Positions 4,233 to 38,915 of a DNA stretch of 64,000 nt are shown piece by piece. The stretch comes from Patescibacteria group bacterium. Lineage in GTDB: Bacteria; Patescibacteriota; Minisyncoccia; UBA6257; 2-01-FULL-56-20. The stretch covers positions 128,172-192,171 of the forward strand of contig JANLHI010000032.1 in assembly GCA_024654525.1 (NCBI GenBank). Direction: 5' to 3'. The notes under the pieces were generated by a model. The model saw only the letters and a list, made by a program, of their open reading frames with translations. It was not told where the DNA came from and did not search any database. The position numbers were made by a program, and so were the translations under genes. How positions within the stretch are numbered: position 1 is the stretch's first letter; every line of letters begins with the position of its first letter.

Positions 4233-5219
4233 ATGAAAAAAACGTTGGCGAATGTCTATATCTACTGCATCGCGCGGCTTTTTAAATGGGGGACGAGAAT
4301 TTTCGGGAGGAGGGGATTATACAAGGTGTGGCCTTTCGGAATGGTCTATGATTTGCTCTCCGGTGCTCTCCATGCGCATAAATGGCCCGAGGTTATTGAT
4401 GTTGATGGCCATGCTATATATGCACCCGAGGCGGAACGGTCTGTGGTGGCGATGTGGAAGGGAAGGGCGGACGAACTTGAATTCCGTTTGCTGGAACGGG
4501 AAATCCCGAAGGGAGGGACGGTAATCGATGTGGGGGCGAATATCGGGTATTACGCACTCATTCTTGCTCGCGCAGTGGGAAGTGAGGGGCGCGTGTTCGC
4601 ATTTGAGCCGGAAAAAGAGAATATTCGATTTTTAAAAAAAAATATTGAGGAAAATCATTATGGGAATGTGGAAATCGTTTCCGCTGCGGTGGGGGAGAAA
4701 AAAAGTTCCGTAATGTTATTTACATCAAATAGTAATCCTGGCGGGCATCAGATTTATGATTTTGCCGGACGTCTTAAAGAAAAAATAGCTCAAGGGAAGA
4801 ATCTTAATGAATCGGAAATACAAGCGTTGCATGAGCATGAAATGGAAATGCAACGCGGTTATGATGTGGACGTAGTGTCTCTTGATGAATATTTTAAAAA
4901 TTATACTCGCCCCATACATCTTATAAAGATTGATGTGGAAGGCGCCGAGGGGGGTGTGCTTGCGGGTATGCGGCACACCCTTCGGAAAAATCCGAATATC
5001 AAACTGTTTTTTGAATTTTGGCCGGTGGGTATGCGTACTTTCGGCAGTGATCCCCGTGCATTTCTCAATATTCTTGAAAATGAGGGATTTGATTTTTATG
5101 ATCTCAATAATTTCAAGCGATATAAGAACGAATCTGAAAAGATGGATGCTGCGGAACTTTTTAGTCGATACGAAAATTCGCAATCAACAAATGTGTTTGC
5201 GATAAAACACGAGCGTTAG
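4233..5219 (+). CDS. FkbM family methyltransferase (second copy)
   Basis: VIDVGANIGYYALILA...FAFEP...IHLIKIDVEGAEGGVLAGM is the FkbM signature. ATG at 4233; the track ORF begins at GTG 4221, which overlaps the GT4 stop. Confidence 0.6.
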   Translation: MKKTLANVYIYCIARLFKWGTRIFGRRGLYKVWPFGMVYDLLSGALHAHKWPEVIDVDGHAIYAPEAERSVVAMWKGRADELEFRLLEREIPKGGTVIDVGANIGYYALILARAVGSEGRVFAFEPEKENIRFLKKNIEENHYGNVEIVSAAVGEKKSSVMLFTSNSNPGGHQIYDFAGRLKEKIAQGKNLNESEIQALHEHEMEMQRGYDVDVVSLDEYFKNYTRPIHLIKIDVEGAEGGVLAGMRHTLRKNPNIKLFFEFWPVGMRTFGSDPRAFLNILENEGFDFYDLNNFKRYKNESEKMDAAELFSRYENSQSTNVFAIKHER

Positions 5220-5746
5220 ATGTAGCACCTTTTTTTCAGTATTTCCTTTATTTTTTTGAGGGATTGCATGGGGTTTTCGCGGTTGGTATGAAGTATGAGC
5301 TCGGGATTTTTCGGTTTCTCGTATATTGAGTGAATGCCGATGAAGTTTTTCATGGTGCCATTTTTCACGTTCCGGTAATGCCCTTTGGGGTCACGCCGCA
5401 TGCAGACCGAAACGGGACAGTCGCAAAAAATTTCTACAAAACGCGGAAATTTTTTTCTTGCCGTGGCGCGGACGCGTGCACTGGGGGATATGATGGAAAC
5501 GATAACGTTTTTGCCTTTTGTAAGATGAGATGTTACGAGCGAGCGTACCCTCCGATGATTTTTTCCAATGTCTCTTTTGCTAAAACCTAAATCTTGCGAA
5601 ATGGTTTTGCGTACTTCATCTCCGTCAACTATTACCGAAGGGATTCTTTTGCGCTGAAGAAAAGTATAGAGCTTTTTTGCAAGCGTGGTTTTTCCCGAGC
5701 CGGAAAGTCCAGTTAGCCACACCACAAAAGGAGGATCTTTCTGCAT
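5216..5746 (-). CDS. cysC: adenylylsulfate (APS) kinase
   Basis: VVWLTGLSGSGKTTLA P-loop with the APS-kinase-specific context. 176 aa, typical length. 4-nt overlap with the upstream gene in the operon. Confidence 0.85.
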   Translation of the reverse strand: MQKDPPFVVWLTGLSGSGKTTLAKKLYTFLQRKRIPSVIVDGDEVRKTISQDLGFSKRDIGKNHRRVRSLVTSHLTKGKNVIVSIISPSARVRATARKKFPRFVEIFCDCPVSVCMRRDPKGHYRNVKNGTMKNFIGIHSIYEKPKNPELILHTNRENPMQSLKKIKEILKKRCYI

Positions 5747-11509: not shown

Positions 11510-12418
11510 ATGAAAATTCTTGTAACCGGAGGTACGGGGTTTGTCGGCTCGAACATTGTTCGTGCGCTTCTCGCGGAAGGACACGAGGTGTTTATCACGG
11601 GAAGCGATGCCGAGCAAAAAATACCGGGGTTCAAAGGGAAGTATCTTCAACCGGGACTGTTGGGAATTGATTGGGATGAGATAGGGAACATCGATGCTGT
11701 TTTTCACGAAGCGGCGATTAATGATACGACACATGATGACACGCGAGAGATGATGCGCGCAAATCTTGAGTCCTCGCGGGCGCTTTTTGAGTACGCCGCT
11801 ATGCATGAATGTCGGCACATTGTGTATGCCTCATCAACTGCGGTATACGGCGATGTATTTCCGCCATTTCGCGAGGATAGTCCGACACACCCCCTAAACC
11901 CTTACGCGGAGTCGAAACTTGCACTTGATGTGTACGCGCAGGAGTTCGCGCGAATGCATCCAGAGATTATTGTGGTGGGATTGCGGTATTGCAACGTGTA
12001 TGGTCCCGGTGAGAGCCATAAAGGCAAGCGCGCAAGCATGATTTATCAGTTGGCGCAGCAGATGCAAAAGAGAGCCCCCGTTCTTTTTAAAGATGGCGAG
12101 CAGAAGCGCGACTATGTGTATATAAAAGATGTGATTACTGCAAATCTAAAAGCGCTTGCCACAACGAAGAGCTGTGTGGTGAATTGCGGTTCGGGCGCGG
12201 CGACCTCATTCAACGAACTGGTGCGGATATTGAATGGCGTGCTTGATATGAATCTTGTCCCGGAATACATTGAAAATCCCTACGAGCGCACTTATCAAAA
12301 GTATACTTTGTGCGATATGAGTCGTGCGAAAGAACTATTGGGATTTGTTCCTCAATACGATATCGAAGACGGAATACGCGATTATTACGCGAGCGGTTTG
12401 TGCGATTCCCGGCCATAA
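11510..12418 (+). CDS. NAD-dependent epimerase/dehydratase (ADP-L-glycero-D-manno-heptose 6-epimerase-like)
   Basis: MKILVTGGTGFVGSNIV Rossmann motif and the YASSTAVYGD...NPYAESK catalytic Y-x3-K. About 300 aa, matching HldD-like short extended SDRs. Lies next to the RfaE-domain-II gene. Start at ATG 11510. Confidence 0.5.
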   Translation: MKILVTGGTGFVGSNIVRALLAEGHEVFITGSDAEQKIPGFKGKYLQPGLLGIDWDEIGNIDAVFHEAAINDTTHDDTREMMRANLESSRALFEYAAMHECRHIVYASSTAVYGDVFPPFREDSPTHPLNPYAESKLALDVYAQEFARMHPEIIVVGLRYCNVYGPGESHKGKRASMIYQLAQQMQKRAPVLFKDGEQKRDYVYIKDVITANLKALATTKSCVVNCGSGAATSFNELVRILNGVLDMNLVPEYIENPYERTYQKYTLCDMSRAKELLGFVPQYDIEDGIRDYYASGLCDSRP

Positions 12419-12894
12419 TAATCAAGGATGCGGGTAATAATTTTTGAAGTGGATCTTCCTTGCGTGACGGGGCAGAGTACCACTTTTCCTCCTTGTGCGA
12501 TAACGAGATTGCGTTCGGTTATCTCTTCTATCCGGCGATCTCCTCCTTTTATGTGGATATCAGGCTTGAGAATTTCCAGCCATTTGAAAGGAGTGGTTTC
12601 GCGAAATATAAATACATAGTCCACTGTATGGAGTGCCGCAATCATTTCCGCTCTTTCCCGTGCAGGGACTATGGGGCGAAGTTTCCCTTTCAGCGCTCTT
12701 ACTGATGCGTCTGAATTTACTCCCACAATCAAAATATCTCCCTTTGATTTTGCGAATGAGAGATTGCGTATGTGACCGATATGGAGAATGTCAAAACATC
12801 CGTTTGTAGTAACCACTTTCTTTTTTTTGGCACGTGCGTTTTTTGCAATGCGCGTTATTTCAACAAGTGCCTTGATCTTTTTTTGAGTTCGCAT
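12385..12894 (-). CDS. D-beta-D-heptose 1-phosphate adenylyltransferase-like (RfaE/HldE domain II, cytidylyltransferase fold)
   Basis: VVTTNGCFDILHIGHIRNLSFAKSKGDILIVGVNSDASVRALKG...IHIKGGD aligns closely with HldE domain II (NGCFDILHAGH...VNSDAS..RLKG...KGGD). Confidence 0.7.
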   Translation of the reverse strand: MRTQKKIKALVEITRIAKNARAKKKKVVTTNGCFDILHIGHIRNLSFAKSKGDILIVGVNSDASVRALKGKLRPIVPARERAEMIAALHTVDYVFIFRETTPFKWLEILKPDIHIKGGDRRIEEITERNLVIAQGGKVVLCPVTQGRSTSKIITRILDYYGRESHKPLA

Positions 12895-21356: not shown

Positions 21357-21411
21357 GTCAGAATTGTAGTCTATTTTGACCGTTTGGGTAATTTATTGTA
21401 GAGTAAGACCC

Positions 21412-22431
21412 ATGATTGTGGTACGCGCACCGCTTCGATTGAGTTTTGTGGGAGGAGGAACCGACCAGCCGGGTTTCTATAAACGCGCACCCGGACGCGT
21501 TGTTTCGACAACGATTGATAAGTTTGTGTATCTTGTGATTAATCGTACTCCGCTTATCAAAAAAGTGTCAGCGCGTTACTCGGCCTCGGAAACGGTGAAT
21601 CATCCCTCGGAACTTCAGCATACTCGTATTCGTGCCGCACTTACTGATCTTGGTATTGAGTCGGGGATAGAGGTGGGGTCGTTTGCGTCACTTCCGGCGA
21701 AGACGGGGCTTGGGTCCTCTTCGAGTTTCACCGTGGCGCTCCTTAAAGGACTCCACGCATTCAAAGGAAGTAAGCTTGATTCTCGCGAAGTTGCGGAAGC
21801 CGCATCGCGTCTTGAGATGGAGCTTATACAAGAGCCTATCGGAAAGCAGGATCAATATGCGGCGGCATTTGGTGGTTTCAACATGTTTCAATTCAATGCG
21901 GATAATTCGGTGGAGGTAACATCGATGTTCTTGAGCTATAAAAATCATTTAGGACTTGAACAACACCTCCTTCTTTTTTTCACGGGACTTACGCGCGCGG
22001 CATCAAGTGTGCTTACCGAACAAAGGGAGAAGCTTGATGCGAAATTCGAAACATATAGAACTATGGCGGATTCGGTGTCGGAATTTGCGGAGCGTCTTGC
22101 GGCGGCGGATTTTAAGGGACTGGGCGGCATGCTCCATGACGGGTGGCAAAAAAAGAAAAGCTTAGCATCCGGAGTTTCAAGTTCTGTAATCGATCGACTC
22201 TATGATGCGGGTATGAATGCCGGCGCATGGGGAGGAAAAGTGGCAGGCGCGGGTGGTGGAGGGTGTGTGATGTTTCTTGCTTCTCCGGAAACGCATACTA
22301 CTATACGTGCATCGGTGGCGAAGGTTGCACATGAAAATAATCTTCAGGATTTTCAGGAAATCCCCGTCCATTTTTCAAAATCTGGCGCGGAGATTCTTTA
22401 CAACGGCGACTGGGCGGTGCATTTGGGTTAA
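21412..22431 (+). CDS. hddA: D-glycero-alpha-D-manno-heptose 7-phosphate kinase (GHMP kinase)
   Basis: MIVVRAPLRLSFVGGGTD N-terminus and the PAKTGLGSSSSFTVALLKGL GHMP ATP-binding motif. Sits immediately upstream of gmhA/gmhB/hddC homologs. Start at ATG 21412. Confidence 0.65.
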   Translation: MIVVRAPLRLSFVGGGTDQPGFYKRAPGRVVSTTIDKFVYLVINRTPLIKKVSARYSASETVNHPSELQHTRIRAALTDLGIESGIEVGSFASLPAKTGLGSSSSFTVALLKGLHAFKGSKLDSREVAEAASRLEMELIQEPIGKQDQYAAAFGGFNMFQFNADNSVEVTSMFLSYKNHLGLEQHLLLFFTGLTRAASSVLTEQREKLDAKFETYRTMADSVSEFAERLAAADFKGLGGMLHDGWQKKKSLASGVSSSVIDRLYDAGMNAGAWGGKVAGAGGGGCVMFLASPETHTTIRASVAKVAHENNLQDFQEIPVHFSKSGAEILYNGDWAVHLG

Positions 22432-22440
22432 TTTCTATTC

Positions 22441-23037
22441 ATGCAACACTATATCAAAGAATATCTCGAACGCGAGATTGAAATGCTTCGTAATCTTCCT
22501 CATGAAGAAATTGCAAAAGCGATTGACGTGCTCCACGCGTGCTACGAGCGCGATGGGCGCATCTATATTTTTGGAAACGGGGGTTCGCTCGCGATAGCGA
22601 CGCATTGGGTGAGCGATTTTAATAAAACCGTATTCAGTCACAATCTCAAACATTCTGCGCGACGGTTTCAGGCAATTCGTGTGCCGACGACGGAGTCCGA
22701 GCTCACCGCATGGGCGAACGATGTGGGGTACGACATGGTGTTTGCCGGACCGCTTCAAAATTATCTTCAAGACTCGGATGTGGTGGTGGCAATTTCAAGT
22801 TCGGGAAATTCCGAAAATATTATCAAAGCGGTAGAGCTTGCGAAATCGCGCAAAATTCCGGTAATAGGCCTTTCGGGATTTGATGGGGGAAAATTGAATG
22901 AGTTGTCGGATATCAAAGTCCTTGTTTCGAGTTCTCAAGGAGAGTATGAGCTGGTGGAAGGAGCGCACATGGTGATATTCCACCTTATGACAAAATATTT
23001 TAAGGATTACCTTGACCATGCAAGCAAAAAGCAATGA
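22441..23037 (+). CDS. gmhA: phosphoheptose (sedoheptulose-7-phosphate) isomerase, SIS domain
   Basis: RIYIFGNGGSLAIATHWVSDF and VVVAISSSGNSENIIKAVELAK...VIGLSGFDGGKL match GmhA SIS-domain motifs. 198 aa. Confidence 0.75.
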   Translation: MQHYIKEYLEREIEMLRNLPHEEIAKAIDVLHACYERDGRIYIFGNGGSLAIATHWVSDFNKTVFSHNLKHSARRFQAIRVPTTESELTAWANDVGYDMVFAGPLQNYLQDSDVVVAISSSGNSENIIKAVELAKSRKIPVIGLSGFDGGKLNELSDIKVLVSSSQGEYELVEGAHMVIFHLMTKYFKDYLDHASKKQ

Positions 23038-23665
23038 TACCACTCACAAGAAAGAGGAGCGGGCTTGCCCGCCAAAGCCCCGCCTGCCGACAGGCGGGTT
23101 CGCGCGAAGGCGGGCCGTTTTCCTCGATCGCGACGGGGTAATCAATCACGAAGTGAATTATCTCGCGCGCGTGGAAGACCTTCGTCTTATCCGCGGCGCG
23201 GCGGCGGCAATCAGGCGGTTGAATACACTCGGCATCCTCGCGGTGGTAATCACCAATCAGGGCGGAATTGCAAAGGGCTTATTTACCGAGAAAGACCTCC
23301 ACAGAATCCACAAAGAAATACACCGGCGACTCGGGCGGCAGGGGGCTCGCCTCGACGGCGTTTTTTATTGCCCGCATCGTCCGGAAGGGGTGGTGAAGGA
23401 GTATGTAACCGTGTGCCTGTGTCGGAAACCCGGGACGCTTATGGTGGAAAAAGCGGTGAAGGAATTGGATATTGATTTTAAAAAAAGTTTTTTTGTGGGC
23501 GACGCGACGCTTGATATCCTTACGGGGAAAAATGCGGGTGTGACGACAATTTTGGTGGAAACCGGTTATGGAGGAAGTGACAAAAAACACGAAGTGACGC
23601 CGGATTTTACCGCAAAAGACCTGTCGCATGCGGTAAAAATTATAGAGAAACACGGTAAGAAATAA
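23012..23665 (+). CDS. gmhB: D,D-heptose 1,7-bisphosphate phosphatase (HAD superfamily)
   Basis: AVFLDRDGVINHE (HAD motif I), VVITNQGGIAKG (motif II), and the CPHRPE...CLCRKP zinc-binding insertion typical of GmhB. The N-terminal ~30 aa overlap the gmhA end and may not be translated. Confidence 0.7.
   Translation: MTMQAKSNDTTHKKEERACPPKPRLPTGGFARRRAVFLDRDGVINHEVNYLARVEDLRLIRGAAAAIRRLNTLGILAVVITNQGGIAKGLFTEKDLHRIHKEIHRRLGRQGARLDGVFYCPHRPEGVVKEYVTVCLCRKPGTLMVEKAVKELDIDFKKSFFVGDATLDILTGKNAGVTTILVETGYGGSDKKHEVTPDFTAKDLSHAVKIIEKHGKK
23079..23098 (+). repeat. GC-rich hairpin motif copy (cccgcctg-ccga-caggcggg), inside the gmhA/gmhB overlap
   Basis: The surrounding sequence gcctgccgacaggcgggttcgcg matches 20 of 22 positions with 39362-39383 (cctgccggcaggcaggttcgcg). 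Confidence 0.4.
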
Positions 23666-24447
23666 TGAGTAATCAACAATCAATGTTTATTAAACAAGCC
23701 GTCATTCTTTCCGCGGGGCTTGGCACGCGCCTCCGTCCGCTCACGGACAATATCCCGAAAGTGATGATTCCTCTCGCGGGGAAGCCCCTGCTTCACTGGC
23801 ACATCGAGCAGTTCAAAAAACACGGTGTTACGGATTTTTTCATCAATCTTCATTATTTGCCCGACACGATACGGGATTATTTTGGTGACGGTTCGCAGTT
23901 TGGAGTAAAAATCATCTATGTATACGAGCCCGAGATCATGGGTACTGCAGGCGGGATGAAAAATTTTGATGGAACCCTTGATGATGTTTTTTTCTTAATG
24001 TATGGCGACATGGCAAGTTTTCTCGATTATAGAAAGATGGCGGATGCTTTTTTTGCAAAGCCTGCTGATGCACTTGGCATGATGGTGGTGGGGCACAACA
24101 ATCATCCGCAGGACTCCGACCTTGTAGTGGCGGATAAAACGCTCAAATTTGAAAATATTTATATCAAACCGCACAAGGAAATGCCCGCCTCGCCGACAAG
24201 CGAACCGCTGCCTTTTTATACAATGGACGCGGCATTCGTATTTCGGAAAGAAATTTTAAAATACATTCCCGCGAAGACTCGCTATCAGATTGACCACGAC
24301 TTACTTCCCAAAATTCTCGCGGAAGGAAAGTCATTTTATGGCTACGAAACGAATGAGTATCTCTACGATGTGGGCACGATGGAGCGCTATCGCGCGGCGG
24401 AGGAATATGCAAAGAAGATTACCAACCCCAACCACTCTATTGAGTAG
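23665..24447 (+). CDS. hddC: sugar-1-phosphate nucleotidyltransferase (D-glycero-alpha-D-manno-heptose 1-phosphate guanylyltransferase-like)
   Basis: AVILSAGLGTRLRPLTDNIPKVMIPLAGKPLL is the G-x-G-T-R-x-x-P-x-T-x-x-x-P-K nucleotidyltransferase motif. Completes the hddA-gmhA-gmhB-hddC set. Confidence 0.6.
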   Translation: MSNQQSMFIKQAVILSAGLGTRLRPLTDNIPKVMIPLAGKPLLHWHIEQFKKHGVTDFFINLHYLPDTIRDYFGDGSQFGVKIIYVYEPEIMGTAGGMKNFDGTLDDVFFLMYGDMASFLDYRKMADAFFAKPADALGMMVVGHNNHPQDSDLVVADKTLKFENIYIKPHKEMPASPTSEPLPFYTMDAAFVFRKEILKYIPAKTRYQIDHDLLPKILAEGKSFYGYETNEYLYDVGTMERYRAAEEYAKKITNPNHSIE

Positions 24448-24467: not shown

Positions 24468-24510
24468 AAAACCTTACATCACTCACGATCGTGAGTGATG
24501 TAAGGTTTTT
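24468..24510. terminator. bidirectional rho-independent terminator (perfect 20-bp palindrome)
   Basis: aaaccttacatcactcacgatcgtgagtgatgtaaggttt is a perfect inverted repeat centred on gatc. It is flanked by ttttaaa upstream and ttttt downstream. Lies between convergent hddC (+) and the GalT-like gene (-). Confidence 0.7.
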
Positions 24511-24540: not shown

Positions 24541-24580
24541 AAACACCGCGCAAACCCCATGGGGTCTGCGCGGTGCGCGA
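24541..24580 (-). terminator. putative terminator hairpin for minus-strand GalT-like gene
   Basis: GC-rich imperfect inverted repeat cgcgcaaacccca/tggggtctgcgcg. On the minus strand it is followed by a T-rich run. Confidence 0.35.
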
Positions 24581-24622: not shown

Positions 24623-25442
24623 TTAGTCCGCGAGGAGGAAATCCCGGGTTGCCTCGTGCGGCCAGGGGAGGGTGAACGGCGTCCTGTGGTCGAGCGCCAT
24701 CCATTCCGACCCGCCCCATTGGTTCAGAATGGGGATGTAGCGGGCAAACCACTCTCCCGGATCATTAAAGGCGACGAGGAAGCAATAATCCGGATTGTTG
24801 AATTTCTGGTTGAATTTCAGGATAAGGCGGAGCGCATCCTCCGCGAGGCGTTCGGGGAAGGCGTCGCGCTTGGTATAGTCAGGCCTTGGATAAATAAGTG
24901 CTTCGCCTGCGCGTACTCCTGTGAGTACGGTTACGAATGCTTCGCTTTCCCAAAGATCAATCATGTCGTTTCCAATTCTGAGTTCTTTTGGCTCGGTGCC
25001 GGGTTGGAGTACATGCCAGTGATGATGCGGGAAGTTTTGCCCCGCGCCGTACCCGACATGGGTAAAAATCCACGTGGGGAACGGGTCGGTTCTTCCACAT
25101 ATCATTTCATCTCGGGCGAACCGAAGTGCGGTAGAAAGCAGCTTTCCCCCCCCCTAAACTCCACAGCGTTATCGCATCCCAACATTCATCGGGAGTGATG
25201 AGACGATGGAATGAGAAAGGGCTGTTGTTGTTCTGAAATCCTTTCCATCTTCGCGAGAGAGAATGCTCGTCAATCTGTGGTTGTGTACAAAGGGGGCAAT
25301 CCTCCCTTTTATGGGGATATTGTGGGCAGTTCATAGGAACTTGCCACGGTCGAACTGTTTTTACTGCCGTCCGTGTCCCGCCGCACAGAGTGAGATGTCC
25401 GCCAATCGTGGTTTGTACCACGCCCTCAAGAGGGATTTTCAT
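24623..25442 (-). pseudogene. galactose-1-phosphate uridylyltransferase-like HIT-family gene, frameshifted at a C9/G9 homopolymer
   Basis: The upstream ORF (25442..25107) carries GalT N-terminal motifs (KTVRPWQ, CPLC). The downstream ORF (25105..24623) carries the HIT/GalT active-site GQNFPHHHWHVLQ (HxHxQ). The two are in different frames, separated by stop - 1 nt - ATG. Extending the downstream frame back shows both frames encode ...GGGK... across the 25146-25154 C9 run, which locates the shift there. Confidence 0.5.
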
Positions 25443-25588
25443 GGTTGATTCCTTTCGTTTCAGTCGTTATTTATTTGCCAAATTTGCAGCTTCCCCATGT
25501 CCGCAAACCGGCCATGAGAAGTGGGGATATAATGTCATTTTAAATAGTGTTTGTCAACAATAACAACTTTTGTTACGCTATATGCACT

Positions 25589-26410
25589 ATGCCTCGCGTA
25601 AGTATCATTATGGCGACGTACAATCGTGCCGCGCTTTTACATAAAGCAGTGGAGAGTGTGATGCGTCAAACTATGAAGGATTGGGAGCTGATTATTATCA
25701 ACGACGCGTCTTCGGATGACACGCAGAATAAACTCGCGGAGCTTCGCGCTCGCGACAAGAGAATCATCACGCTCGCGAACGAAGTGAATCTCGGCATTTC
25801 CAAAACCTATAACAAAGGATTTCGTGTTGCGAAAGGGGAGTTTATTGCAATGATTGATGACGATGACGCGTGGATTCCCGATAATAAATTAGAAAAACAA
25901 GTGCGATTTCTCGGTTCACATTCCGACTACGTGGGGTGTGGCGGTGGTGTGATTGCAGTAGCTACGGAAGGAAAGGAATTATATCGGTATTTAAAACCCG
26001 AACGCGACGAGGAAATTCGGCGTTACATGCTTTTTTCCAATCCGATGGCGAACAGTACCACGGTATTTCGCCGTGAGGTTGGTGAGAAGGTGGGGTGGTA
26101 CGACGAATCCATCCGTTATGCGGGTGATCGGGATTTTTGGTTGAAAATGGGGCTTCAAGGAAAGCTTTGCAATGTGCCCGATTATTTTTCTTATTACACC
26201 AAAGGAACTGCGAATACCTCTATCGCAAGAATGCGCCCACATCTCAAGACTGCATTTATGGTGATGCGGCGCTATAAGGGGAAATATCCTCGATATACTG
26301 CGGCATTTTGCGCAAATCTTATTCAGTATTGGTATGCCTTTCTCCCTGCGGGAATACGGAATGCGTCCCATACGACTGCGGCGCGCGTGAAACGGATGCT
26401 GTTCAAGTAA
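25589..26410 (+). CDS. glycosyltransferase family 2
   Basis: MPRVSIIMATYNRAALLHKAVESVMRQTMKDWELIIINDASSDDT...IDDDD is the GT-A signature. Start at ATG 25589. Confidence 0.7.
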   Translation: MPRVSIIMATYNRAALLHKAVESVMRQTMKDWELIIINDASSDDTQNKLAELRARDKRIITLANEVNLGISKTYNKGFRVAKGEFIAMIDDDDAWIPDNKLEKQVRFLGSHSDYVGCGGGVIAVATEGKELYRYLKPERDEEIRRYMLFSNPMANSTTVFRREVGEKVGWYDESIRYAGDRDFWLKMGLQGKLCNVPDYFSYYTKGTANTSIARMRPHLKTAFMVMRRYKGKYPRYTAAFCANLIQYWYAFLPAGIRNASHTTAARVKRMLFK

Positions 26411-26414
26411 ATAA

Positions 26415-27881
26415 TTACCCGCCGAGTATCGCGTGTCGGGCTTCCTTGAGCAATGGTTCTTTAAGGAGGTAGAGCGCAAGTGCGTACACAATCCCTCCGA
26501 GCGCGATTATTCCGATTACATGCACGCCGATGAAAGCGAAGAGAAGAGTGATTGCCGTCATCGCGAGTGTGGATACGATTGCGATGGGCAGGTAAGTGAA
26601 TACCGCGAAAGGAACATGGGTGCGGAGCGTGCCCCAAAGGTACGCGGTACTTGCTATTTGTGCAATGAAGGTTGCCCACGCGCATCCGGCGATGCCGAAT
26701 TGCGGGATGAGGAGGAGATTCAGTGCTACGTTCGAGAGCCCGCCGATCGTGGCATATACGGTAAGCGCTTTCGAGCGGTGATAGGCGAAAAGTGCGTTTG
26801 AGAGAATCACCACGGGGAAATCAACAATGAGCGTGAGGAGAAGAATCCGGAACGCATCGGTGCCGGGGAGGAACTCCGTGCCGAAAAGAAAAGAAATAAT
26901 ATGAGGCGCGAGGACAATGCCGCCCGCGGCGAGCGGAAGTGCGATGAGAAATATGGCGGTAAGCGTTTTCTCAAGTGCGGCTTTCATAAGTGGCGGCGCG
27001 GTTGTAGCAAGACGTGAAAACGCAGGAAATGCGCTTACCGCGAGAATGGAGGGGATGATATAGAGGAGTTGTACGATGCGGTACACTGCCGAATAAAATC
27101 CGACATCTTCCGCCGAGCGGAGCCAGCCTACCATAAGTACGTCGGTGTTGAGCATAAGGAGCCCGAGGAGCGCCGCAAGCGACAGCGGCCACGCGGAAGA
27201 AAAGATGGGCTTTACGAGCTCGGGGGCGAATTGGGAAAAGAATCGGGGCGGGAACTGGCGACGGAGCGCAAAAAATGTTGCGACGGTGCCCGCGGCGATG
27301 CCAAGCGCGTAGGCATACGTGAATGACGCGGGAGTGGGAACGACGGCGAGGAATACGAATCCGAATATGACTATCGCGGTGTTGGTGAGGAGAAAAAGCC
27401 CCGCTTCCCATTCCATCCGTTCCATTGCGCGGATGACGGAGGCGCCGAACTCTCGGAGTGCGTCGAATGCAAGGAGAAATGCAATGATGGGTAGGAGTGG
27501 CTTCGCCGCCGCGATGGTGGTAAAGAGCGGCGCGCCGAAAAGTACAATGGCGACTCCTGCCACGATAAGAACGAATTTAAGGAAAAGTGTAGTGGAGAGG
27601 ATGCGTGCGCGATGCACAGGGTCTGGGTTTTTTGCGGTTTCACGGATGAGTACCTGGCTTATGCCCACGTCGGTAAATGGCGTGAGAAAGGCGGCGAGCG
27701 TTACGCCGTAAGAAAACACTCCCCATCCCTCGGCGCCCAAGAGGCGCGCGGCATAAATAATAACCACGGCGCGGATGAGGCGTCCTCCGAAGTTTGAAAC
27801 GGAAAGCCAGAATGTGTTTTTTGCAATGCGCTGGCGCGTGGAGGCGTTTTTAAAGAGGAAAGACTTTACCCGTGCAAGCAT
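26415..27881 (-). CDS. wzx: oligosaccharide flippase (Wzx / polysaccharide biosynthesis protein family)
   Basis: 488 aa with ~12-14 hydrophobic segments. The N-terminal NTFWLSVSNFGGRLIRAVVIIYAARLLGAEGWGVFSY is typical of the PF01943 family. The GC-rich gene body produces many spurious overlapping ORFs on both strands. Confidence 0.65.
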   Translation of the reverse strand: MLARVKSFLFKNASTRQRIAKNTFWLSVSNFGGRLIRAVVIIYAARLLGAEGWGVFSYGVTLAAFLTPFTDVGISQVLIRETAKNPDPVHRARILSTTLFLKFVLIVAGVAIVLFGAPLFTTIAAAKPLLPIIAFLLAFDALREFGASVIRAMERMEWEAGLFLLTNTAIVIFGFVFLAVVPTPASFTYAYALGIAAGTVATFFALRRQFPPRFFSQFAPELVKPIFSSAWPLSLAALLGLLMLNTDVLMVGWLRSAEDVGFYSAVYRIVQLLYIIPSILAVSAFPAFSRLATTAPPLMKAALEKTLTAIFLIALPLAAGGIVLAPHIISFLFGTEFLPGTDAFRILLLTLIVDFPVVILSNALFAYHRSKALTVYATIGGLSNVALNLLLIPQFGIAGCAWATFIAQIASTAYLWGTLRTHVPFAVFTYLPIAIVSTLAMTAITLLFAFIGVHVIGIIALGGIVYALALYLLKEPLLKEARHAILGG

Positions 27882-36293: not shown

Positions 36294-37004
36294 ATGACAC
36301 TCTTGTTAAATAAAGTTGCGGATGAACAGAAACGGAAACCCACAGGTCAGGAAAAAGACCAGTTCCTAAAACAGGCTGGCGATTTCCAACGGCGGTTTAT
36401 GGATGGTTCACTTGTGCCCAATCGTGCGCTTGAGACTTGGCAACAAGTTTCGGAGGGATGGGTACTCGGGGAATCAGGGGTACCCGAACCAAAACCCGCC
36501 GAACTTTTCCTCGACAAACCGATCCAGCATCCCCACCTCTCATTCGTCAGCGAGTTCGAGGTGGAAGTCCCCGCGGACTTCGCGCTCGACAGTGTCCCGC
36601 GCACGGCATACTGCCCGAACGGATGGAATGCAAACATCACTGATATCAATTTCCCTCGTATGTCGCTCGTCAAAGGCAAACGATATATGGCGGAAATCTA
36701 TCAGTTGCGGTGCAATAAGAGCTCGGAGTCCATCGTGAAAATTGCGGATGAGCGAAAGCGAGTCCTGCCAGGAGCCTTGGGCGGCGCAGTCCTTACGAGT
36801 CGCTATGGAGAAAAACTCCCGAAAGATTTTTGGGTCGTGTGTTTGGATAAAATCAAAAACCTTTGGCGCGATGGGCACGGTCTCCATGTTCCGATCTTCA
36901 ACTGGAACGACTTCGGCTGGGACTTCAACTTGGACATCTGGAACGGCGACTGGTTTCAGGGCTTCTACATCGTGTTTTTCCGCGAGTTTGTTTCAAATCC
37001 TTAG
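36294..37004 (+). CDS. DGR target (variable) protein; C-terminal ~40 aa encoded by VR
   Basis: 236 aa with no signal peptide or TM. The C-terminal WRDGHGLHVPIFNWNDFGWDFNLDIWNGDWFQGFYIVFFREF is encoded by the VR. The variable codons correspond to TR AAC/AAT/GAT/TAC codons. Confidence 0.6.
   Translation: MTLLLNKVADEQKRKPTGQEKDQFLKQAGDFQRRFMDGSLVPNRALETWQQVSEGWVLGESGVPEPKPAELFLDKPIQHPHLSFVSEFEVEVPADFALDSVPRTAYCPNGWNANITDINFPRMSLVKGKRYMAEIYQLRCNKSSESIVKIADERKRVLPGALGGAVLTSRYGEKLPKDFWVVCLDKIKNLWRDGHGLHVPIFNWNDFGWDFNLDIWNGDWFQGFYIVFFREFVSNP
36860..36983 (+). repeat. DGR variable repeat (VR)
   Basis: Aligns without gaps to 37346-37469. The 13 mismatches are VR c,g,t,t,g,g,t,t,t,t (plus c,t,t at the 5' edge), all against TR a. 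Homology ends at ...tttttccgc. Confidence 0.75.
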
Positions 37005-37174
37005 GTTTTGGCTCTCCGAACCTTTGGATATTAATCCTTAGACCCTTGAGTGCTTTGCGCTTGGGGGTCTTTGCGTTTTGGTATACTGTTTTCGGATACT
37101 AGGCGAATATGCGCGCGGTTACGGCTTCGCGCTGCCGAATTCTCGATATGCGCATGGAGAGTTGCGCCGGGTAC

Positions 37175-37196
37175 GCCTGCCTACCGGCAGGCAGGC
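37175..37196 (+). repeat. GC-rich hairpin motif copy (gcctgcc-taccggca-ggcaggc) between DGR VR and TR
   Basis: Shares the cctgcc...ggcaggcagg core with 39361-39378. Confidence 0.45.
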
Positions 37197-37345
37197 TTTG
37201 TGCGAGAGGCATGTGCAATTCGTAAAAAAATTGAAACACTCGGTGCGCCTCGCTAGGTGATTAAAGCAAGAAGTTTAATATCACGAATTCGATACAACTC
37301 CGAGATATGCATTCAAGGAGTGGTGGCGCAGGCGGTGCGGCGCAC

Positions 37346-37469
37346 ACAATGGCGCGATGGGAACGATCTCCATGTTCCGAACTTCAACTGGAACGACTAC
37401 GGCTGGAACTTCAACTTGAACATCTGGAACGGCGACTGGAATCAGGGCAACTACATCGTGTTTTTCCGC
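37346..37469 (+). repeat. DGR template repeat (TR)
   Basis: Non-coding copy of the VR. The core (37351-37469) carries 30 adenines, 10 of which correspond to substituted positions in the VR (3 more at the 5' edge). No non-A position differs. AAC-rich when read in the VR frame (aac x7). Confidence 0.75.
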
Positions 37470-37476
37470 TACTGTT

Positions 37477-37830
37477 TCATTTCTCCTCCCGTACGGAGGA
37501 GTTTTGCTTTATAAGTTGATTATGCCACCCGCCGAGCATCCGTCCCGCTTCCGCAAGCGGTGCGGATAATGCAATATATTTCTTTTCGTCGAGGGCATGG
37601 ATTTCCCACGCGAGCAAAAGGAGGCACTTTCCCGTATCAAGCGCCGTGATTGCATGCTTTACTTCTGGTAGCTTTTCCGTCTTTGGGAGAAAGCAGGCGG
37701 TTACCGTATGCTCGATTGTGGCGATGAGAAGCGCGTCAATCCGCGCGGCAAGCGTGTAACGCGAAGCTTTCGGTATGTGCGGTAGATACTCATGCCAAAG
37801 CTTGTATGCGGAAGTAATTTTGTGAAGCAC
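37477..37830 (-). CDS. Avd-like accessory variability determinant (four-helix-bundle protein), opposite strand
   Basis: 117 aa, basic, predicted all-helical. ...RYTLAARIDALLIATIEHTVTAC...KHAITALDTGKCLLLLAWEIHALDEKKYIALSAPLAEAGRMLGGWHNQL resembles the four-helix-bundle (PF05635/TIGR02436) family to which DGR Avd proteins belong. Sits between TR and RT. Confidence 0.5.
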   Translation of the reverse strand: MLHKITSAYKLWHEYLPHIPKASRYTLAARIDALLIATIEHTVTACFLPKTEKLPEVKHAITALDTGKCLLLLAWEIHALDEKKYIALSAPLAEAGRMLGGWHNQLIKQNSSVREEK

Positions 37831-37868
37831 GATTGGACTCCGTGGGGGGGGGGCTTATAAAGAATCAT

Positions 37869-38915
37869 ATGTTTGAACAGATTATTGCAGTCGAAAACTT
37901 GCTCGCGGCGTGGAAAGAATTTTTGCGCGGCAAACGGACGAAACCCGATATGCAGGAATTCTCCTTGATGCTAATGGACAATATCCTAGCTCTTCACGAG
38001 AAACTACGCAACGGCACCTATCGCCACGGGGAGTACAAACATTTCCGCATTACCGACCCTAAGCCACGTGACATTCACAAAGCCACCGTCCGGGACCGGT
38101 TGCTCCACCACGCTATCCATAGGGTGCTCTATCCCTTTTTCGACCGCACATTCATCGCCGACTCGTTCTCATGCAGGAATGGAAAAGGGACGCATCGCGC
38201 GATGAACCGTTTCCGCATGTTTGCCTATCAAGCGAGCAGGAATCACACTCGCACGTGCTGGGTGCTGAAGTGCGATATCCGCAAATTCTTCGCTTCAGTT
38301 GACCACCATATGCTCATGGAAATTCTCCGTTCCCGGATAACAGATAAAAAGACTCTTTGGTTACTCGGGGACATTGTGGGAAGTTTTTCAAACACAAAAA
38401 TCCCTCGGTTCGCGAACTCGCCACTCCCTTCCCTCTTTCGTTCGCAAGCTTCGGTGGGCTCAGTACGAACGGGAGAACCAGGAGGAATAGGGCTTCCGCT
38501 CGGAAACCTCACGTCCCAGCTTCTCGTGAATGTTTACATGAATGAGTTTGACCAGTTTGTGAAACATCGCTTGCGAGTAAAGTATTACGTCCGTTATGCG
38601 GACGATTTTATAATTATGTCCCAAAATAAGATGTGGCTCGAAACTATCTTGCCAGAAATGGAATCTTTTCTTTGGGGTTGGCTGAAACTTCGCCTGCATC
38701 CCGGCAAGGTGTCCGTTTCCACGATCGCCTCGGGCGTGGATTTCCTCGGCTGGGTGCATTTCCCAAGCCATCGCGTGCTACGAACGGCGACGAAAAAGAG
38801 AATGATGAAAAGAATCTTTGCGCATCCCACGAGCGAAACCTTCGAATCTTATAAAAGCCTTTTATCTCATGGCAACGCATTCGGATTGGAGAAAAAATTT
38901 ATATCAAGCTCTTGA
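37869..38915 (+). CDS. DGR-type reverse transcriptase
   Basis: RT domains are present: RITDPKPRDIHKATVRDRLLHHAI (1-2), SFSCRNGKGTHRA (3), GLPLGNLTSQLLVNVYMNEFD (4, with the DGR-specific [I/L]GxxxSQ motif replacing the group II QGxxxSP), YVRYADDFII (5, YxDD) and LRLHPGKVSV...VDFLGW (6-7). The track ORF starts at TTG 37833. ATG 37869 is preferred; a G10 run lies between them. Confidence 0.8.
   Translation: MFEQIIAVENLLAAWKEFLRGKRTKPDMQEFSLMLMDNILALHEKLRNGTYRHGEYKHFRITDPKPRDIHKATVRDRLLHHAIHRVLYPFFDRTFIADSFSCRNGKGTHRAMNRFRMFAYQASRNHTRTCWVLKCDIRKFFASVDHHMLMEILRSRITDKKTLWLLGDIVGSFSNTKIPRFANSPLPSLFRSQASVGSVRTGEPGGIGLPLGNLTSQLLVNVYMNEFDQFVKHRLRVKYYVRYADDFIIMSQNKMWLETILPEMESFLWGWLKLRLHPGKVSVSTIASGVDFLGWVHFPSHRVLRTATKKRMMKRIFAHPTSETFESYKSLLSHGNAFGLEKKFISSS

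Follow-up and report, generated by a model that had tools for sequence, protein, structure and literature searches.

The pair of short open reading frames at positions 24623-25442 of this patescibacterial contig poses two linked questions: whether they represent two genes or one and, if one, whether the interruption belongs to the organism or to the assembly. Both lie on the minus strand of the window, by which we mean the whole 64-kb stretch of DNA that was analysed. The first-pass annotation took them for the halves of a GalT-like gene of the HIT family, split by a frameshift within a run of nine identical bases and situated in a glycan locus, and allowed for a sequencing or assembly indel, a genuine pseudogene or a phase-variable switch.

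One gene in two reading frames

The upstream ORF (25107-25442, minus strand; NUV53_05160, MCR4328862.1) encodes 111 residues, among which are the sequences GGTRT, KTVRPWQ and CPLC along with His79. These are followed by 11 out-of-frame residues and a stop codon, the C-terminus reading ...LWSLGGGKAAFYRTSVRPR*. The downstream ORF (24623-25105, minus strand; NUV53_05155, MCR4328861.1) encodes 160 residues, containing the stretch GQNFPHHHWHVLQ with its H139-x-H141-x-H143 triad and the second lobe of the fold described below. The junction between the two is AGA TGA A ATG, a stop codon and a start codon separated by a single nucleotide; the gene is present as two halves in different frames. The ATG is not a real start: it is the codon for an internal methionine, Met113, of the restored protein.

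The C9 run at 25146-25154 of the plus strand is G9 on the coding minus strand. The earlier observation that both frames read GGGK across it is borne out, and the downstream frame is open from *GGGKLLSTALRFARDEM..., its opening stop codon immediately preceding the run. Because that frame opens there, and because the alignment with homologues holds on either side of the tract, the shift is placed inside the tract or immediately next to it. The tract encodes the invariant L96-G97-G98 plus G99, its nine bases forming codons 97-99 of 272 in the first 36% of the ORF. A tract of eight G residues gives a protein of 272 amino acids and one of eleven a protein of 273, while nine and ten are both out of frame. 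We define the whole disrupted gene as 24623-25442 on the minus strand, encoding, with G8, a 272-residue, GalT-like, two-lobed protein of the HIT superfamily, an assignment drawn from homologue alignment, AlphaFold2 modelling and Foldseek comparison.

A plus-strand ORF of 180 residues (24656-25198) also crosses the region. It was taken as an antisense shadow, the minus-strand gene being backed by 24 full-length homologues. As to base composition, the region had been described as GC-rich relative to its neighbours. This is modestly true of the gene (0.537) measured against the whole window (0.458), but the neighbouring flippase gene is similar (0.557). Close orthologues are likewise raised in GC, at 0.55-0.56 against 0.45.

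The gene in related genomes

The restored 272-residue protein aligns with 24 intact single-ORF homologues from MAGs of Patescibacteria (Paceibacterota and Liptonbacteria), which are 251-293 residues long, 31-54% identical and aligned at 90-99% coverage. This, with the position of the tract at an invariant LGG, upholds the reading of one gene broken in a homopolymer. The closest orthologue is 54% identical; the sole 100% match is the 160-residue fragment itself, NUV53_05155, on its 193-kb contig. L96, G97 and G98 are each invariant in 25 of the 25 aligned sequences, and the orthologues encode them as CTC or CTG, then GGC, then GGT, GGA or GGG, followed by A or G, without forming a run. No G/C run of six or more was found anywhere in the orthologue genes compared. 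As LGG is encoded elsewhere without a run, the tract is specific to this lineage.

An exhaustive profile search of 1.84 billion proteins recovered 225 representative clusters at E≤0.001, 131 of them at E≤1e-30. Among the 150 matches listed, about 110 are 245-340 residues long and match nearly the whole profile, the others being shorter fragments. It had been suggested that the combined fragments were short for GalT; that is so, although about 270 residues is a normal length here, the whole family measuring roughly 250-310. Related loci retrieved by a search with a 10-sequence alignment numbered six. When eleven related loci, representing seven distinct genomes, were compared by tblastn, a single HSP covered the whole gene each time. 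Comparison with orthologues, proposed at the outset as the means of deciding whether the split arrangement is a stable one, thus found the gene intact throughout: neither among the 24 homologues, nor in the family listing, nor in the seven genomes is any orthologue split at the tract site.

The short family members that do occur in databases are cut off at contig ends or frameshifted at other positions. Three of them (P0157, P0160 and P0170) run into unrelated Arg/Ser-rich sequence 10-40 residues past the LGG, and judging by these sequences they look like frameshifts elsewhere in the gene, either assembly errors or pseudogenes of other metagenomes.

These comparisons bear on whether G9 might itself be functional, with full-length protein made through transcriptional slippage, one G being lost, or through +1 ribosomal frameshifting on GGG GGG GGG A. 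Established mechanisms would allow such recoding: a nine-nucleotide homopolymer fills the RNA:DNA hybrid and permits realignment, and at any point along the tract the P-site tRNA-Gly could shift its pairing to the +1 frame. We nonetheless consider it very improbable. Known efficient transcriptional slippage in bacteria uses A or T runs; the tract is followed by neither a stalling stop nor a rare codon, the next codon being AAA and the 0-frame stop lying 11 codons on; and in the orthologues the site shows neither a frameshift nor a run, so that it is not a conserved signal. A recoding site shared by the family was ruled out, since its frameshifted members break at other positions.

A compact GalT-like protein of the HIT superfamily

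The restored protein matches no Pfam or NCBIfam model at E≤1. When a profile of the family was compared with the PDB, the matches were HIT proteins (4EGU, E=1.3e-7; 4ZGL, 2.6e-5; 5UVM, 4.9e-5) aligned over positions 38-146, an interval that runs across the break point. Weak matches to the HIT model PF01230 were obtained for 13 of 25 family members (best E=5.5e-4), and the GalT models PF01087 and PF02744 were matched by none of the 25. Structure prediction with AlphaFold2, from the 25-sequence alignment, gave a model of pLDDT 91.4 and pTM 0.89. Foldseek assigns this predicted structure a probability of 1.00 to GalT-like and Hint structures, indicating an alpha+beta HIT fold. The best whole-chain match in the PDB is the GalT-like ADP-glucose phosphorylase At5g18200 of Arabidopsis (E=2e-11, TMq 0.61-0.68), followed by the E. 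coli and human GalT enzymes (TMq up to 0.72) and then by DUF4931 and the Ap4A phosphorylase Apa2. The alignments to 1Z84, 2H39, 1HXQ, 1GUP and 5IN3 are full-length (TMq 0.61-0.72), and predict two tandem HIT-like lobes per chain.

The GalT branch, comprising GalT (galactose-1-phosphate uridylyltransferase, EC 2.7.7.12; E. coli 1HXQ/1GUP and human 5IN3) and ADP-glucose phosphorylase (1Z84/2H39), supplies the best whole-chain matches overall, with E values of 2e-11 to 6e-8 and TMq of 0.61-0.72. Like the members of that branch, the protein combines a pair of HIT-like lobes within a single chain, has N-terminal R-P-W-Q and C-x-x-C motifs ahead of the first lobe, and carries its His motif where lobe 1 ends. 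The present protein differs in being only 13-17% identical to members of that branch, in matching neither GalP_UDP_transf nor any other Pfam or NCBIfam model, in its length (about 270 residues against 300-350), and in its triad, which is H-x-H-x-H, as in Hint and Fhit, where GalT has H-x-H-x-Q and uses the second His as its nucleophile. Small HIT proteins of the Hint type (4EGU, 4ZGL and 5UVM; PF01230) are matched by the family profile at E values of 1.3e-7 to 5e-5 and resemble it in the motif G-Q-N-x-x-H-x-H-W-H. They are, however, single-domain homodimers of 110-150 residues, whereas the present protein has, fused in one chain, an extra N-terminal segment and a second lobe that is His-less. 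DUF4931 (4QVU) and Apa2 (4I5T) are also compact GalT-like HIT folds (Foldseek E of 2e-5 and 1e-4, respectively), but fit worse than GalT and ADP-glucose phosphorylase and give no match at the sequence level.

Invariant residues of the family include R31-P32-W33-Q34, C49, N71, H128, G134-Q135 and H139-x-H141-x-H143. The three His residues of the triad are invariant in 25 of 25 aligned members, the sequence in the window being PHHHWHVLQ. At the putative counterpart of the N-terminal zinc site of GalT (C-x-x-C plus His residues), C49 is invariant and H79 nearly so, while C52 is present in close members but gives way to other residues in P0020, P0023 and P0025. As a lead only, an hhalign comparison with E. 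coli GalT, weak at E=0.024 and a reported probability of 2%, places H139 and H141 on H164 and H166 of GalT, and H143 on Q168.

By its modelled structure the protein belongs, then, to the HIT superfamily, as a compact GalT-like form with two lobes that lies outside the curated GalT family, and the enzyme is a new subfamily, lacking a Pfam model, of a known fold. The original GalT-like HIT label is upheld, with two corrections: the profile match at E=1.3e-7, the model of pLDDT 91 and TM scores of up to 0.72 sustain it, while the curated GalT Pfam models and the H-x-H-x-H triad set the protein apart from GalT proper. From the predicted fold and the genomic neighbourhood we infer a GalT-like or NDP-sugar-phosphorylase-like enzyme. 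The fold and the conserved neighbourhood together suggest that it would act on an NDP-heptose or a related sugar-1-phosphate by way of a covalent nucleotidyl-His141 intermediate. A literature search for HIT enzymes acting in heptose pathways found nothing.

Genomic neighbourhood

On one side the HIT-like gene is met by a converging plus-strand operon (21376-24447) whose products are, by Pfam, a GHMP kinase, a SIS isomerase, a HAD phosphatase and an NTP_transferase. By domain content this is the predicted enzyme set of a GDP-glycero-manno-heptose-type pathway. On the other side lies a divergent plus-strand gene for a GT2 glycosyltransferase (25547-26410), followed by a minus-strand gene for a Wzx-type flippase (26415-27881), both likewise assigned by Pfam. 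The order Wzx, GT2, HIT-like, HAD-NTP_transferase-SIS-GHMP recurs in related genomes, where the HIT-like gene always sits between the two blocks, and its position is kept in at least five other distinct genomes. The glycan-locus setting put forward earlier is thus well founded, with GT2 and Wzx genes on one flank, an operon of GDP-heptose type on the other, and conservation of both in related loci.

Candidate expression signals accompany the gene. A promoter-like site (TTGACA, a 17-nt spacer and TG-CATTAT; 25529-25557, minus strand) precedes the start codon at 25442 by 87 nt; it is a consensus match, and the count of such sites in the region is about that expected from shuffled sequence. An SD-like AAGGA is also present. 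Downstream of the stop at 24623 is a terminator-like hairpin of 15 pairs, 10 of them G-C, with a T tail (24543-24576, minus strand). Beyond it, between the convergent nucleotidyltransferase and HIT-like genes, stands a perfect 42-nt palindrome, AAAACCTTACATCACTCACGA|TCGTGAGTGATGTAAGGTTTT (24468-24509), bordered by one run of A and one of T. It was missed by a simple terminator scan and read directly from the sequence, and is probably a bidirectional intrinsic terminator.

Two further observations concern the wider glycan region and its relatives. At 12385-12894 on the minus strand a small ORF encodes a cytidylyltransferase-like product whose motif, TTNGCFDILHIGH, seems to resemble the adenylyltransferase domain of RfaE/HldE; an orthologous locus (L004) carries a CTP_transf_like gene at 5043-5540. 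The glycan region may encode a second activation route, of ADP-heptose type. Separately, in a Liptonbacteria MAG (locus L008, JAZDEB010000037.1) tblastn recovers the GT2 orthologue beside the HIT-like gene in two pieces that adjoin (5413-5015 and 5823-5410), a pattern that suggests a frameshift in the GT2 gene.

The G9 allele and the absence of further decay

In the AlphaFold2 model a long helix, residues 99-116, directly follows the tract. In the G9 state the first product swaps this helix for 11 out-of-frame residues and the second ORF resumes only from Met113, so that both lack residues 100-112 and with them the greater part of the central HIT helix. The G9 state also parts the N-terminal RPWQ and CxxC motifs from the His triad. 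Since the helix residues are lost and the conserved motifs and triad are separated, the G9 allele is a null allele on the evidence of the model and of the HIT profile alignment, which spans the break.

The same considerations weigh on the reading that the two ORFs form a stable arrangement of two separately functional proteins, which NCBI's annotation of two hypothetical proteins, NUV53_05160 and NUV53_05155, might seem to favour. With no homologue split at the site, a second ORF that starts at an internal Met within helix 99-116, and 13 residues of the conserved fold absent from both products, we regard such an arrangement as barely credible.

Apart from the frameshift the gene is well preserved. 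The restored protein keeps all 22 of the 22 invariant columns and deviates at 2 of the 58 strongly conserved ones; for comparison, 23 of 24 other family members show 0-7 such deviations. The gene bears a single lesion, and its promoter-like, SD-like and terminator-like sites are kept. A decayed pseudogene is ruled out by these observations of one lesion only and every invariant column retained, and because no other decay is seen in the gene, the shift is recent, reversible or artefactual.

Another reading is a very young pseudogene: the lineage would have dispensed with the enzyme, the null allele would be fixed, and the tract would no longer be usefully switching. Destruction of the HIT core by the frameshift accords with such a loss, accessory glycan genes are among those that episymbionts with reduced genomes lose, and the codon-aware null described below gives no sign of selection on the tract. 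Set against these points, there is neither a second lesion nor any excess of substitutions at conserved columns, the remainder of the locus is intact, and the gene is kept in a fixed position in the at least five other genomes already mentioned. Moreover, a G9 tract would be expected to revert often, making fixation hard to sustain. We judge a fixed pseudogene to be improbable.

Homopolymers in the window

The window contains three G/C tracts of nine or more, at 2264-2272, 25146-25154 and 37844-37853. Whether this number is unusual depends on the null model. Dinucleotide shuffling predicts 0.24-0.25 G/C runs of at least nine, against the three tracts (four pattern matches) observed. Resampling of synonymous codons at the usage of the window, on the other hand, predicts 0.75 coding runs of at least nine against two observed (P=0.17), and 2.2 runs of at least eight against three observed. 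GGG makes up 22% of the Gly codons in the window, so that GGG-GGG-GGA could arise by chance. Poly-G enrichment, strong under the dinucleotide null and not significant under the codon-aware one, was therefore set aside as evidence for a contingency locus.

Eleven related loci (L001-L011; 117.5 kb, or about 80 kb without duplicates) contain no G/C run of seven or more. In the 64-kb window there are five such runs, three of them of nine or more. Relatives seem to avoid long G/C runs, which this genome does not. A search for the exact flanks of the tract with a variable gap between them found no other copy in the genome and metagenome contig collections, and an exact-protein look-up of the 160-residue fragment and two neighbouring genes returned no contigs in the gene-position index.

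The second G9, at 2264-2272, is in frame within a gene for an FkbM-family methyltransferase (2011-2883; PF05050). It forms codons R84-G85-G86, just before the VDVG SAM-binding motif, and its homologues, of no more than 37% identity, all retain G86. A one-base change here would cut the protein short about 29% of the way along.

The longest G/C run in the window, a G10 tract at 37844-37853, is associated with a complete diversity-generating retroelement (DGR) at approximately 36.3-38.9 kb (36294-38915). The variable repeat (VR; 36864-36983) is at the 3' end of an ORF at 36294-37004, and the template repeat (TR; 37350-37469) is 92% identical to it over 120 nt, with 10 of 10 mismatches falling at TR adenines. 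An RVT_1 reverse transcriptase is encoded at 37869-38915. On the opposite strand, an unusual orientation, is a bAvd-like ORF (37477-37830, minus strand) that scores 37.7 bits against PF22296, narrowly short of the cutoff of 40. The bAvd-like gene and the reverse transcriptase gene are 38 nt apart; the G10 tract falls in this interval, its end 15 nt short of the reverse transcriptase ATG (37869). From its position it could be an SD-like element, or a length-variable element affecting expression of the reverse transcriptase.

Some 90 other homopolymers in the window (A/T runs of at least seven, G/C runs of at least six) were tested for coincidence with a broken gene. None breaks one, and they include an A9, thirteen T8 runs and the in-frame G9. 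Apparent broken genes flagged at 12878, 17957 and 30768 proved to be ordinary gene boundaries.

Artefact or slip mutation

That the organism carries G8 and an intact gene, the extra G being a homopolymer-call artefact introduced in sequencing, consensus calling or assembly, is a serious explanation. The gene is otherwise perfectly preserved and all its orthologues are intact. Technical lesions most commonly take the form of single-base errors in G/C runs of the longest class, and long G runs are where consensus indel errors concentrate. Such lesions are common in MAG data, as witness P0157, P0160 and P0170, which look frameshifted elsewhere in the gene, and the split GT2 orthologue in L008. 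The absence of any other gene-breaking homopolymer in 64 kb, with A9, thirteen T8 runs and another G9 among those tested, argues the other way. So does the 193-kb length of the source contig, which suggests good coverage, in which case the consensus would normally report the majority tract. On balance we think an artefact possible, if rather unlikely.

The explanation that we tentatively prefer, while putting its chances at somewhat short of even, is that a hypermutable tract has undergone a real slip mutation and that ON and OFF variants probably exist side by side in the population. Slipped-strand mispairing would have expanded the tract by one base, from G8 to G9, and so have knocked out the compact GalT-like HIT nucleotidyltransferase or phosphorylase gene of the heptose-glycan locus. 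A 9-nt G tract being intrinsically hypermutable, cells with G8 (ON) and with G9 or G10 (OFF) would probably coexist and interconvert, and the assembly would have captured the OFF state as that of the majority. Switching of this kind would toggle an NDP-sugar step, probably involving GDP-heptose or a related sugar-1-phosphate, through the putative covalent His141-nucleotidyl intermediate. On this explanation the tract may be either a selected contingency switch or an accidental weak spot.

The phase-variable poly-G/C glycan genes of Campylobacter, Haemophilus, Neisseria and Helicobacter likewise have a G8-G10 tract early in a surface-glycan ORF, as here within the first 36%, and in them too a change of one base toggles the reading frame. 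The second G9 of the present window, in the FkbM methyltransferase gene of the same glycan region, extends the likeness. Unlike in those known contingency loci, the excess of tracts here is not significant under the codon-aware null. Full-text literature searches yielded no report of tract-mediated phase variation or of homopolymer switches in Patescibacteria/CPR. A stronger proposal would be that the poly-G tracts are true contingency loci (G8/G9 in the HIT-like gene, G9 in the FkbM gene and perhaps the G10 upstream of the DGR reverse transcriptase), producing phase variation of a heptose surface glycan alongside protein diversification by the DGR. We hold this to be doubtful, and unlikely on the evidence assembled here.

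Implications

Homopolymer frameshifts are a familiar, ordinary kind of lesion in genes from MAGs, and if the organism carries G8 the present case would amount to an assembly error only. At the level of annotation, NUV53_05155 and NUV53_05160 should be recorded as the two halves of one gene. Their restored product belongs to a compact, GalT-like HIT family as yet unmodelled in Pfam, with members of about 270 residues, an H-x-H-x-H triad and 225 representative clusters. Its conserved place in Patescibacteria, next to a GDP-heptose-type operon, a GT2 gene and a Wzx flippase gene, makes it reasonable to propose the family as a candidate for some step of NDP-heptose metabolism or editing that has gone unrecognised.

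Were the tracts to be true contingency loci, they would constitute the first simple-sequence phase variation in the candidate phyla radiation, and would offer a testable role for an uncharacterised GalT-like family that accompanies GDP-heptose operons. Mixed tract lengths would mean that CPR episymbionts vary their surface glycans by simple-sequence switches, and such switching, if real, would matter for how these bacteria attach to hosts and evade phages, in a group for which there is no genetic system.
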